Positions 3,200 through 9,106 of a DNA stretch of 24,000 nt are shown in pieces. The notes beneath the pieces are model-generated. The model was given only the letters and a program-made list of their open reading frames with translations, searched no databases and was not told the origin of the DNA. This DNA comes from Bacillaceae bacterium (GTDB lineage: Bacteria; Bacillota; Bacilli; Bacillales; Bacillaceae_G), in the NCBI GenBank assembly GCA_027451065.1, contig DAIDKD010000007.1, forward strand, positions 1-24,000, in the 5' to 3' direction. The first letter of the stretch is position 1. The number at the start of each line of letters is the position of its first letter. Position numbers and translations under genes: made by a program.

Positions 3200-4525
3200 A
3201 TGAAAAAAATGAAAGTAATACAGAAGGTAGTAGCAGGAATCGTTACGGGAATCGTTCTTTTATCTTCAGCAACACCAGCAGCTGCTGAAAATTTAAACAC
3301 AACGCTTCAACAACAGCAAAGTCAGGCAAATTCACTACAAAATGAAATTGAGACAACAACAGCTGAAGTTTTGGCACTAGATAGCCAAATTGCGGATAAA
3401 CAAAGTGAAATTGATGAAATGAAGCTACAGATTGAGCAAACGAACAATGAAATTGAAACAATCATAGCTGAAATAGAAGAAACACAAAATATTATTTCAG
3501 AAAAAAAGGAAGAGATTGCTAGTTTAGAAGCTAGCCAAGAGAGACGTATTGAAATATTGCGCGAGCGTGCTTCTACTCTTCAAAAGCAGAACCGTACAAA
3601 CATGGCGCTGGACATTCTCTTAAATTCAGAAAGTATCGTTGACCTACTTCAGCGTGCTAGCTCATTAGGAACTTTATTCCAGTCCGATACAGACATTATG
3701 CAAGAACTACAAGAGACACAAACTATTATTGAGGCTGAGAAACAAATTCTTGAAGAAAAAGAGCAAGCATTAAGTGAACAACAAGAAGCTTTGCAACAAA
3801 AGCAAGCATCTTTACAGCACCAACAAGATGAACTGCAAAGACAACAAGATAATCTACAAGCAAGCAAATCACAAAAAGAAGCTGCTATCGCTTCTTTAGA
3901 AGCAAACTTACAGAGCGTAAGAAATGATATTGCAACAACAAATGCTCGTTTAGAGGAACAAGCAGCCGAAGCAGCACGGTTACTTGAAGAGCAAAGAGAA
4001 AGAGAAAATCGTCAGGCAGCAGCCGCAGCAAGTTCGAATAACCAGCCTGCTACAGCTGTCATGTCAAATGCGGCAAATACTAGTAGCGCTGACCGTAGTC
4101 TTATTGGTAACAATACGAATAACACGAATAATAGCAATACTGGTAATGCCAATACGAACAACAATGGTAATGTGATAAACATTGCTCGTCGATACATAGG
4201 TGTTCCTTACCGTTGGGGTGGAACAACGCCGAGTGGATTTGATTGTAGTGGTTTCGTTCTTTATGTGTTTAACCAAGCGGGACGTAGAGTTCCTCGTGTT
4301 GCACAAGCACAATGGAATGCTTCTACAAGAATCAGCCGTGCCCAAGCTCGTCCTGGAGATTTAGTATTCTTCCAAAATACGACTGGTAGATCAGGTATTA
4401 CCCATGTAGGTATTTATATGGGCGGTAACCAATTTATTCACGCATCAAGTAGCCGTGGTATTACAATTACAAGCTTAAGTAACGTATTCTGGTCTCCTCG
4501 TGTAGCCGGATTCGGTAGAATTTAA
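3200..4525 (+). CDS. Secreted coiled-coil + NlpC/P60 peptidoglycan endopeptidase, CwlO-like (paralogue 1 of 4)
   Basis: Signal peptide MKKMKVIQKVVAGIVTGIVLLSSATPAAA/EN, then about 300 aa of heptad-rich Q/E/L coiled coil and an N/T-rich linker. The C-terminal NlpC/P60 domain has Cys in GFDCSGF and His in THVGIY and IHAS. I moved the start from the ORF-track 3095 to ATG 3200 (AAAGGTG SD 9 nt upstream) because the 35 extra codons overlie the promoter. Confidence 0.9.
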   Translation: MKKMKVIQKVVAGIVTGIVLLSSATPAAAENLNTTLQQQQSQANSLQNEIETTTAEVLALDSQIADKQSEIDEMKLQIEQTNNEIETIIAEIEETQNIISEKKEEIASLEASQERRIEILRERASTLQKQNRTNMALDILLNSESIVDLLQRASSLGTLFQSDTDIMQELQETQTIIEAEKQILEEKEQALSEQQEALQQKQASLQHQQDELQRQQDNLQASKSQKEAAIASLEANLQSVRNDIATTNARLEEQAAEAARLLEEQRERENRQAAAAASSNNQPATAVMSNAANTSSADRSLIGNNTNNTNNSNTGNANTNNNGNVINIARRYIGVPYRWGGTTPSGFDCSGFVLYVFNQAGRRVPRVAQAQWNASTRISRAQARPGDLVFFQNTTGRSGITHVGIYMGGNQFIHASSSRGITITSLSNVFWSPRVAGFGRI

Positions 4526-4533
4526 GTAAGAAA

Positions 4534-4599
4534 ATAGTGGTCAGGCTGTCTGAAATGGGAAAGTTCGCCCCTTTTCAAACAGCTTGACCACTATTTTTA
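4534..4599 (+). terminator. Rho-independent terminator after paralogue 1
   Basis: 22-nt arms ATAGTGGTCAGGCTGTCTGAAA (4534-4555) and TTTCAAACAGCTTGACCACTAT (4573-4594), with two non-Watson-Crick positions (one G.U, one mismatch), followed by TTTT. Confidence 0.75.
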
Positions 4600-4618
4600 T
4601 GACAATTTTCTCAGAAAT

Positions 4619-4678
4619 ATTACACTTTATTTACACTGAGTCACTGTACAACACTTAGAAATTTCCATATGGTATAAC
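4619..4678 (+). promoter_or_regulatory. Promoter of paralogue 2: WalR-type box + extended -10
   Basis: 4619-4635 ATTACACTTTATTTACA reads TGTAAA-TAAAG-TGTAAT on the bottom strand, a perfect WalR consensus. 37 nt downstream is TGgTATAAC (4670-4678). Confidence 0.6.
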
Positions 4679-4720
4679 CTTTATACACTCATTAAACGAA
4701 GAAAGGTGTCGAATCTCAAT

Positions 4721-7729: not shown

Positions 7730-7760
7730 GTAAAATCTATTTTTATTTTCATACATACAG

Positions 7761-7817
7761 TTTTGTCGAAAGGAAAGGAGAAAGTTTGAAAGCTCTCTCC
7801 TTTCCTTTCGACAAAAT
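7761..7817. repeat. 21-bp perfect inverted repeat (strong hairpin) carrying TTCGACAAAA arms
   Basis: TTTTGTCGAAAGGAAAGGAGA (7761-7781) and TCTCCTTTCCTTTCGACAAAA (7797-7817) with a 15-nt loop. It lies between the paralogue-3 terminator and the paralogue-4 WalR-type box. Confidence 0.85.
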
Positions 7818-7837
7818 ATGACATTCTTCTTGCTGAT

Positions 7838-7897
7838 ATTACATTTGTTTTACAATTCGACAAATTTCAACAATAGAGAGAAAATCCATGGTATAAA
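7838..7897 (+). promoter_or_regulatory. Promoter of paralogue 4: WalR-type box + extended -10
   Basis: 7838-7854 ATTACATTTGTTTTACA reads TGTAAA-ACAAA-TGTAAT on the bottom strand, a perfect consensus. ATTCGACAAA abuts it at 7855-7864. 37 nt downstream of the box is TGgTATAAA (7889-7897). Confidence 0.6.
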
Positions 7898-7942
7898 ATG
7901 AATAGTAAATTTTCAAACTACCATGGAGGATAAAATAAAAAC

Positions 7943-9106
7943 ATGAAATCAATATTAAAGTTTGGTGTTTCTGCAATAACAGGATTATCTATCTTATTTT
8001 CAACGGCAATACAGGCATCTGCTGAAGATTTGAAGTCAAAGGTACAACAACAAGAAAGCGAAATCAATGAAATAAAAAATGACATGGAAGCTCTCCAAAA
8101 AGAGATTTCTAGCTTAAATGATGAAATGAAAGAAAATAAAAATAAATTAAATACCACAAAAATTGAGATCACAGACATTCAAGCGGAAATAAAAGAAAAA
8201 GAAGAAGTAATTGCCAATTTAGAGGAAAACATCGAAAAGCGTATTGAAATTTTAAAAGAGCGTGCTGCAGCTCTTCAACAACAAGATCGTACAAATATTA
8301 TAGTAGATGTTATTTTGAATGCAGAAAGCATTACAGATTTACTTCAAAGCATGACGTCGTTAAACGCTATCTTCCAATCTGATACAGATATTATGGCGCA
8401 ATTAGAAACTGACCAAGCCCTAGTAGAAACAGAAAAAGTAGCTATTGCTAAAAAAGAACAGGAACTGCTTGAAAAACAAGACGATTTAGAAGAACAAAAA
8501 GCTGCGCTAAAAGAAAAGGAATCAACAAAAGAAAACTCTTTAGCAGCATTAAAAAATAAATTAGCAACAGCGATGACGAATCTAGAAGCAACAGAAGAAC
8601 AGTTAGCGGCACAAGAAGCAGCTGCATTATTTATTGCAGAACAAAGTGATGATAATGAATCAGAAGCCACTTCAGCCGCTGTAAGCACTAGTTTGCTCCC
8701 TGAACCTGATTCCAGTGAAGAAACTAGTGAATCAACAAGCTCTAATACCAATTCCGGCAGTGTCGTAAGCACCGCCCTTTCCTATCAAGGTGTTCCTTAC
8801 GTATTTGGTGGAAAATCGCCAAGTGGATTTGATTGCAGTGGCTTTATCTGGTATGTATTTAACCAATCCGGAAAAGGAATCGGCTATCAAACTGCCGCTG
8901 GATTGTACAGCAGTTCAGCAAAAGTAAGCTCCCCTTCAGTTGGAGATTTAGTATTCTTCTCCAATACTTACAAGTCTGGTATTTCTCATGTAGGTATTTA
9001 CATTGGAAACAACCAATTCGTTCACGCTGGCGGAAGTGCTGTTCAAGTTACTAGCTTAAGCAACCCTTATTGGTCAGCCCACTTCACAGGATACGGTAGA
9101 CTATAA
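7943..9106 (+). CDS. Secreted coiled-coil + NlpC/P60 endopeptidase, CwlO-like (paralogue 4 of 4)
   Basis: GGAGGA SD. Signal peptide MKSILKFGVSAITGLSILFSTAIQASA/ED, a coiled coil, an acidic S/T/E linker, and NlpC/P60 (GFDCSGF, SHVGIY, VHAG). Confidence 0.9.
   Translation: MKSILKFGVSAITGLSILFSTAIQASAEDLKSKVQQQESEINEIKNDMEALQKEISSLNDEMKENKNKLNTTKIEITDIQAEIKEKEEVIANLEENIEKRIEILKERAAALQQQDRTNIIVDVILNAESITDLLQSMTSLNAIFQSDTDIMAQLETDQALVETEKVAIAKKEQELLEKQDDLEEQKAALKEKESTKENSLAALKNKLATAMTNLEATEEQLAAQEAAALFIAEQSDDNESEATSAAVSTSLLPEPDSSEETSESTSSNTNSGSVVSTALSYQGVPYVFGGKSPSGFDCSGFIWYVFNQSGKGIGYQTAAGLYSSSAKVSSPSVGDLVFFSNTYKSGISHVGIYIGNNQFVHAGGSAVQVTSLSNPYWSAHFTGYGRL

Follow-up and report, generated by a model that had tools for sequence, protein, structure and literature searches.

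The licensing of wall cleavage in growing Gram-positive rods is known mainly from Bacillus subtilis, where one enzyme, CwlO, is controlled by FtsEX and another, LytE, is anchored by LysM; in the case of EnvC of Escherichia coli the contact with FtsX is placed at the tip of the coiled-coil hairpin. In systems of this kind, loops of FtsX engage the hydrolases via regulatory coiled coils (PMC6705773), and EnvC binds the periplasmic domain of FtsX through its coiled coil (PMC7668044). At the level of transcription, B. subtilis cwlO is listed under sigA and walR (PMC10653849, Table 1), and lytE and yocH are listed under both walR and spo0A (PMC10653849). WalR activates cwlO, lytE, and yocH; a site that overlaps with the core promoter leads to repression, iseA being an example (PMC13525142). 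In this work, a 24,000-nt stretch of the genome of a Bacillaceae bacterium (assembly GCA_027451065.1, contig DAIDKD010000007.1, positions 1 to 24,000; hereafter, the window) was analyzed, within which four consecutive genes of the + strand (genes 1–4) form, as read from the sequence, a tandem family encoding four secreted peptidoglycan D,L-endopeptidases. Proteins of this kind, and the way in which they are regulated, are well known, and the known paradigm is extended here rather than changed; the unusual features are the retention of four copies in tandem, the presence of a LytE-type catalytic domain on a CwlO-type scaffold, and a coiled coil held in common with an M23 enzyme.

All four open reading frames (ORFs) were found where the initial annotation of this DNA had placed them, and they share the layout that it described, i.e., a signal peptide, a coiled coil, a linker, and a C-terminal NlpC/P60 domain. 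Gene 1 (3200–4525, 441 aa), with a 69-residue Asn/Ser linker, is the most divergent copy, and it is followed by gene 2 (4721–5944, 407 aa, 67-residue linker), which lacks a terminator, gene 3 (6095–7669, 524 aa), with a 154-residue Ser/Asn linker, and gene 4 (7943–9106, 387 aa), in which the linker has 48 residues. According to the ORF listing, each of them begins with ATG, ends with TAA, and is preceded by the Shine-Dalgarno sequence AGAAAGGTG or GGAGGA, and neither frameshifts nor internal stops were found in any of the four. Among NCBI-derived gene calls, the database protein P0002 corresponds exactly to gene 2, and P0241 to gene 1 with a start 3 codons downstream, both being encoded on an NCBI contig of 28.3 kb. 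Both expected domains were recognized in all of these proteins: CC_PcsB (PF24568) at 52–68 bits (Pfam gathering cut-off 27) and NLPC_P60 (PF00877) at 100–120 bits (gathering cut-off 23). The catalytic residues, which had been described as intact in every copy, are indeed so, as the Cys and both His residues are invariant across the four-way alignment (C349 of the DCSG motif, H402, and H414 in the numbering of gene 1). The signal peptides, read from the sequence without a predictor, are in each case composed of a basic n-region and a hydrophobic core and end with AAA|E or ASA|E. Since the nucleotide identity among the copies is only 55–78%, without long identical stretches, the array is not an assembly artefact.

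Within the coiled coil, the conserved core reported in the initial annotation was recovered (31 of 74 CC_PcsB columns are invariant), but the motif patterns spelled out there turned out to be too specific, the exceptions being RVEIL instead of RIE[IV]L in gene 2, LFQSD instead of IFQSD in gene 1, and AE..TSL instead of SE..SSL in gene 4. The product of gene 4 was modeled with AlphaFold2 on a 55-sequence alignment (mean predicted local distance difference test score 78.7; residues 3–23 of low confidence). In the model, two helices (residues 16–113 and 130–237) are connected via a short tip and followed by a disordered segment (238–271) and the NlpC/P60 domain (272–387). Using Foldseek, this model was aligned over its whole length to RipC in the FtsEX/RipC complex of Mycobacterium tuberculosis (8idc_E), to Cg1735 of Corynebacterium glutamicum, and to PcsB (4cgk). 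Similarly, phmmer matches to PcsB (4cgk, E-value 3e-10, residues 23–277) and to RipC (8idc_E, residues 106–369) both span the coiled coil. The CC_PcsB segment corresponds to the hairpin tip in the model (residues 90–163 of gene 4) and is 63% identical among the copies, with values of 65% for the catalytic domain, 37–42% for the arms, and 25% for the linker; the coiled-coil hairpin tip is about as conserved as the catalytic domain. A conserved tip would be expected if all four proteins docked on one FtsX. By homology, the coiled coil would hold the catalytic domain in check outside the cell, its conserved tip would dock on the extracellular domain of FtsX, and cleavage would be licensed by ATP hydrolysis by FtsE, as for CwlO, PcsB, RipC, and EnvC. 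We consider FtsEX control plausible, with a chance that is roughly even or slightly better.

The catalytic domains themselves point to another B. subtilis enzyme. In phmmer comparisons, all four reached 100–135 bits against B. subtilis LytE (8i2e/8i2d) versus 40–51 bits against B. subtilis CwlO (8wt3/23tz), and the top Foldseek match of the gene 4 model was also LytE (TM 0.94, 53% identity), with CwlO showing 34% identity. Because the LytE matches far exceed the CwlO matches in each of the four proteins, these genes are not strict CwlO orthologues, and they are best described as CwlO-like in their predicted architecture. The CwlO/PcsB-type design named in the initial annotation stands as far as the architecture is concerned, with the correction that it does not imply strict CwlO orthology. 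Among more narrowly defined families, the scores of the four proteins stayed below the cut-offs for NCBIfam PcsB (NF046104; 36–66 bits, cut-off 450), CHAP (18–24 bits, cut-off 26), RipC (NF038345; 50–97, cut-off 425), EntFM/CwpFM (NF040678; 116–138, cut-off 720), and Iap p60 (NF010495; 90–120, cut-off 647). Several of the RipC matches reach into the coiled coil; those to EntFM/CwpFM cover mainly the linker and the catalytic domain, and those to Iap p60 are mostly of the same kind, with some reaching the coiled coil. The Pfam scan gave no match to LysM repeats in any of the four proteins. It is also worth mentioning that at least two catalytic classes can be distinguished among the coiled-coil NlpC/P60 proteins of Bacillaceae: the LytE type, found here and in the Gottfriedia protein P0026, and the CwlO type, as in P0250 (97 bits against CwlO versus 79 bits against LytE).

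The coiled coil of gene 1 was also found in another context. A 476-aa protein encoded on a separate NCBI contig of 15.7 kb (P0242) has a signal peptide and a whole coiled coil that, across 268 residues, are 67% identical to those of gene 1. At the Asn/Ser linker the homology stops, and the C-terminus is a Peptidase_M23 domain (98.8 bits) in which the HxxxD and HxH motifs are present. By its predicted domains, the same coiled coil is joined to two hydrolase chemistries in this lineage, which suggests that the regulatory module is exchangeable between hydrolase types. Such a swap fits the odd place of gene 1 in the comparison of the catalytic domains, described below.

The window was screened with the WalR motif TGTWAH-N5-TGTWAH (PMC13525142). 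Its consensus occurs 4 times in the 24 kb versus 0.34 expected, a number reached by 0 of 100 shuffles, and all 4 of these boxes are intergenic and lie upstream of the genes of the array. Consensus boxes, each on the − strand, precede gene 2 (4619–4635, TGTAAATAAAGTGTAAT), gene 3 (5986–6002, TGTAACGAAAATGTAAT), and gene 4 (7838–7854, TGTAAAACAAATGTAAT). Gene 1 has a WalR-type box with one mismatch (3104–3120, − strand, TGTAAATAAAACGTAAC) in the same register as the boxes of genes 2–4. Each promoter further contains an extended −10 element on the + strand, at 3155–3163 (TGTTATAAA), 4670–4678 (TGGTATAAC), 6037–6045 (TGATATATT), and 7889–7897 (TGGTATAAA) for genes 1 to 4, respectively. The alignment of the upstream regions, in which a 3.7-kb Logan contig with an orthologue of gene 4 (L080) was included, showed that these regions are homologous to each other and to that upstream of the orthologue. 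The extended −10 has the form T(A/G)TGnTATAxx in all five, the center of the WalR box precedes the predicted start by 58 nt, both in the four promoters and in that of the orthologue, and a gapless 60-nt register links the four promoter copies. Three upstream blocks, i.e., the WalR box (in L080 at 554–570), TTCGACAAA, and the extended −10, have survived despite saturated synonymous sites. The claim that the genes have independent promoters is supported by this unit of a WalR box and an extended −10 upstream of each of them.

WalR boxes are also found at such genes in other genera. In Gottfriedia (L081–L084), Bacillus sp. 165 (L085), Virgibacillus/Tigheibacillus (L086), and Lysinibacillus (L087), the single CC_PcsB-NlpC/P60 gene is preceded, at a distance of 80–300 nt, by a consensus box of the same orientation, which is usually the sole WalR box in the 17–21 kb of these loci. 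All these observations make it very probable, as far as promoter sequences can tell, that the four genes are members of the WalR regulon. Each of them would be transcribed from a sigma-A promoter of its own, in which an extended −10 is not accompanied by a good −35. The WalR box is positioned upstream of the −35 position, which fits activation, and WalR bound at a box centered at −58 would probably activate each promoter, with the effect that all four genes would be turned on jointly in growing cells. The distance from the WalR box to the extended −10, which is fixed across the paralogues and the orthologue, defines a putative WalR-activated promoter beyond the model species. A riboswitch or another RNA leader (e.g., of the ydaO/c-di-AMP type) was considered and rejected, as an Rfam search of the whole window gave no match at the gathering threshold and the leaders are predicted to measure only 30–43 nt.

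Two WalR boxes should be mentioned separately. One, the fourth consensus box of the window (2950–2966, + strand), lies in the divergent intergenic region, 59–75 nt upstream of the start of a gene for a membrane-anchored GDSL/SGNH esterase (2103–2891, − strand, start at 2891; Pfam Lipase_GDSL_2; PDB 7e16, 134 bits), and this gene may also belong to the wall-homeostasis regulon. The other, in Bacillus sp. 165 (L085, 20876–20892), is located approximately 183 nt upstream of a gene for a 228-aa ABC ATPase (21059 onward), which follows a cytochrome c gene, with the single coiled-coil NlpC/P60 gene lying approximately 10 kb upstream. This order of cytochrome c and ABC ATPase genes is presumably that found around B. 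subtilis ftsE.

The reverse complement of the block TTCGACAAA, namely TTTGTCGAA, includes the heptamer TGTCGAA, i.e., the consensus of the Spo0A-binding 0A box (PMC2731898), and the block occurs 5 times in the window versus 0.29 expected. On the + strand, between the WalR box and the extended −10, it is found in the promoters of gene 1 (3132–3140, at about −35), gene 3 (6004–6012), and gene 4 (7856–7864), in the two latter cases adjoining the WalR box at about −45, and the copy of gene 4 is kept in L080 at 572–580. All six TGTCGAA heptamers of the window are localized upstream of the four start codons. The possibility that TTCGACA serves as a −35 hexamer was rejected, because in gene 1 it is separated from the −10 by 19 nt, whereas for genes 3 and 4 the distance is about 30 nt; owing to the latter distance, it is regarded as a separate element in genes 3 and 4. 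Through the TTTGTCGAA element next to the WalR box of genes 1, 3, and 4, Spo0A~P may switch off these genes when sporulation begins. The same sequence is also found in each arm of a near-perfect palindrome with 27-nt arms (7761–7816; −37.7 kcal/mol, z −10.7), which is located between the terminator of gene 3 and the promoter of gene 4, has no U tract on either strand, and is not present in the orthologous spacer of L080.

Following the analysis of the promoters, the relationships between the copies were analyzed. For every pair, whether in the helical module or in the catalytic domain, the ratio of nonsynonymous to synonymous substitutions (dN/dS) was 0.06–0.34, with dS above 1 (saturated), and the longest shared DNA stretches were at most 79% identical over approximately 300 nt. 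The duplications are therefore old, and the copies are old duplicates under purifying selection. Recent gene conversion was rejected on account of the low identity of these stretches. The contig L080 was the only close relative found; it encodes a gene 3 orthologue, of which the C-terminal part is present (2–433; 87% identical in the catalytic domain), and, behind it, the orthologue of gene 4 (P0001, 70% identical overall), with a terminator, a WalR box, TTCGACAAA, and an extended −10 in between. As this pair stands in tandem also in L080, the duplication that gave rise to genes 3 and 4 predates the species split. That the array is maintained and not decaying, as had been proposed, is confirmed by the dN/dS values and by the retention of this pair.

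The helical modules of the four proteins are 40–58% identical to each other versus at most 37% to anything foreign, and the coiled coil of gene 1 shows 40–46% identity to those of genes 2–4. The catalytic domains of genes 2–4 form a tight group (71–80%), and that of gene 1 shows 52–53% identity to them and 57% to foreign LytE-type domains. The initial annotation had also pointed to subfunctionalisation. This was not supported by the analysis: the four promoters are alike, with the WalR box at −58, which argues for co-regulation and not for regulatory divergence; divergence was seen only in the linker length, in the arms of the coiled coil, in the position of the 0A-like box, and in the more distant catalytic domain of gene 1. 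In every foreign locus inspected, which is a small sample, the CC_PcsB-NlpC/P60 gene was single. A scan of genome contigs revealed no close relative among the matches listed, which were mostly to LytE-like catalytic domains, and two metagenome scans with the coiled-coil core gave no match. The search anchored in the 705-aa gene downstream of the array yielded only one short orthologous contig.

Hairpins were identified by an inverted-repeat search combined with folding against shuffles, and a strict terminator scan found no intergenic terminators. On the + strand, terminator hairpins follow gene 1 (4531–4597; −41.1 kcal/mol, z −8.4, then a U run), gene 3 (7669–7729; −38.6 kcal/mol, z −10), and gene 4 (9108–9151; −27.4 kcal/mol, z −9.1). 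In the 150-nt spacer between genes 2 and 3, no structure beyond chance was detected (5945–6040; −10.1 kcal/mol, z −0.5 versus shuffles), in agreement with the earlier statement that gene 2 has no hairpin terminator and that co-transcription of genes 2 and 3 is possible; gene 3 may thus also be read through from gene 2. The stem-top sequence TGAAATGGG, together with its CCC complement, is common to the terminators of genes 1 and 3. The above suggests that the original duplication unit comprised a promoter, a gene, and a terminator, and that the terminator of gene 2 was lost later.

A different kind of change is visible in the linker of gene 3, which is encoded by a 24-bp tandem repeat (6977–7319, + strand, 14.2 copies) giving a sequence of the SNSSSSNN type. 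The inner copies of the repeat are 90–96% identical, i.e., far more uniform than the paralogues are among themselves, and its expansion is, judging from this uniformity, recent. For the same reason, the length of this linker is probably still in flux, changing by slippage.

With moderate confidence, we favor the reading in which the locus encodes four WalR-activated, FtsEX-licensed coiled-coil D,L-endopeptidases that differ mainly in the linker and the arms. Since the promoters are built alike, a division of labour is more likely to be found in the linker and the arms than in timing, and the copies may accordingly differ in their reach into the wall or in their affinity for partners. Several points weigh against this reading. 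The promoters are paralogous and of common ancestry, so the four WalR boxes do not represent four independent events. An alternative upstream promoter can be drawn, composed of (A/T)TGACA, a spacer of 15–16 nt, and TACAnT, which would overlap the WalR box and imply repression; it was rejected and is kept only as a caveat, as conservation tracks the WalR half-sites and not this −10 (TACAAC in L080). The ftsEX, sweCD, and walRK genes are absent from the window, the catalytic domain is of the LytE type and B. subtilis LytE is not FtsEX-controlled, and RipA of Corynebacteriales, also a coiled-coil NlpC/P60 enzyme, works without FtsEX (PMC9897464). As for Spo0A, the position of the 0A-like box differs between gene 1 and genes 3 and 4, the promoter of gene 2 has none, and across the window the heptamer alone shows no significant enrichment (6 versus 2.56 expected; 6 of 100 shuffles reach 6); for these reasons, the proposed Spo0A repression of genes 1, 3, and 4 is reasonable but weak. 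An ABC transporter encoded upstream (198–2100, − strand) was considered as a candidate FtsEX and rejected, because it consists of an ABC-2 family permease and a 305-aa ATPase.

Some of these points would be accounted for if the four proteins were FtsEX-independent secreted autolysins, i.e., four released muralytic enzymes for cell separation or turnover, in which the coiled coil would serve only auto-inhibition, oligomerisation, or wall targeting. Such an explanation, which we regard as possible but rather unlikely, is in line with the LytE-type catalytic domain, with the lack of an ftsEX gene nearby in the window, and with the corynebacterial precedent, the gene 4 model aligning also to Cg1735. 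It is harder to reconcile with the fact that all four proteins pass CC_PcsB, a model that takes its name from the coiled coil of PcsB, an FtsEX partner, and that conservation within the N-terminal module is highest at the hairpin tip. Moreover, EnvC binds FtsX via the coiled coil (PMC7668044), and the M23 paralogue with the same coiled coil suggests a portable adaptor and not a domain-specific inhibitor. A different alternative concerns the number of genes: the array could be redundant, with all copies doing the same job under the same regulator, without a real division of labour, and being kept for the amount of enzyme or for robustness to loss. The identical design of the four promoters and the sameness of the catalytic residues and of the hairpin tip would be expected in such a case. 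Nevertheless, pure redundancy is rarely stable for as long as these very old duplicates, all of them retained and genes 3 and 4 persisting across a species split, have existed; the linkers differ three-fold, the arms are only 37–42% identical, and the catalytic domain of gene 1 is as far from those of genes 2–4 as from foreign enzymes. We regard the dosage explanation, too, as possible but rather unlikely. The notion of a silent or decaying array with a single functional copy is effectively refuted and its likelihood is minimal, given the intact ORFs, the invariant triad, the purifying selection in both modules, and the conservation of promoter elements, ribosome-binding sites, and terminators.

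A bolder and, in our opinion, doubtful proposition is that, in this poorly sampled Bacillaceae lineage, the FtsX-docking coiled coil has become a portable adaptor placed on at least five wall hydrolases (the four NlpC/P60 proteins and the M23 protein), all of them wired to WalR. If it were true, one FtsEX transducer would choose among clients cutting different bonds or reaching different depths of the thick wall, and a LytE-type activity that in B. subtilis stands on its own would have come under the control of FtsEX. Returning to the favored reading, i.e., four WalR-activated and FtsEX-licensed enzymes, the locus may be seen as a natural experiment, in which four old enzymes with LytE-type domains and a conserved tip are combined with differing linkers under the same predicted WalR promoter design. 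It bears on two questions, whether one FtsEX serves several clients and whether the length of the linker sets the depth of cleavage.

Other features of the window include a gene located downstream of the array (9256–11373, + strand), coding for a 705-aa tetratricopeptide repeat (TPR) protein with approximately 47% identity, over half of the length, to Bacillaceae proteins of about 920 aa that combine TPR with a dynamin-family GTPase. The Pfam search gave no match to a GTPase domain in the 705-aa protein, and this form is conserved, as its orthologue P0122 (72% identical) also has 705 aa. A cluster for beta-glucoside utilisation was found at 15595–20191 (− strand); it encodes a LicT/BglG-type antiterminator with CAT_RBD and PRD domains, as well as ORFs that, by translation, read like the EIIBCA component of a phosphotransferase system and a 6-phospho-beta-glucosidase. 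The approximately 700 nt upstream of this cluster (20192–20896) contain no convincing ORF.

Among the described systems, the architecture is shared by the CC_PcsB-NlpC/P60 proteins of Gottfriedia, Bacillus sp. 165, and Lysinibacillus, annotated as C40 family peptidases, whose genes are also preceded by a WalR box in the same orientation; however, their full-length identity to the proteins analyzed here is only 31–40%, and their genes are single and dispersed, never in tandem in the loci inspected. The coiled-coil module is homologous to those of Streptococcus pneumoniae PcsB, M. tuberculosis RipC, and E. coli EnvC, and the overall architecture aligns by Foldseek with RipC and PcsB; PcsB, however, has a CHAP domain, for which the four proteins remain below the threshold, and they are not equivalogs of PcsB or RipC. 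LytE provides the closest solved catalytic domain, and the control of lytE by walR and spo0A is matched here by the WalR box accompanied, in genes 1, 3, and 4, by a 0A-like box, whereas LytE has N-terminal LysM repeats and no FtsEX regulation (PMC6705773), their place being taken here by a coiled coil. With CwlO, the four proteins share a layout in which a signal peptide precedes a regulatory coiled coil, and a disordered linker leads from the latter to the NlpC/P60 domain at the C-terminus (PMC6705773); B. subtilis cwlO is WalR-controlled, and the genes described here carry consensus WalR boxes. They differ from it in the LytE-type catalytic domain (about 34% identical to that of CwlO, 40–51 bits), in the predicted leader of approximately 30–43 nt, and in number, as the one cwlO gene of B. 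subtilis is confronted here with four genes in tandem.

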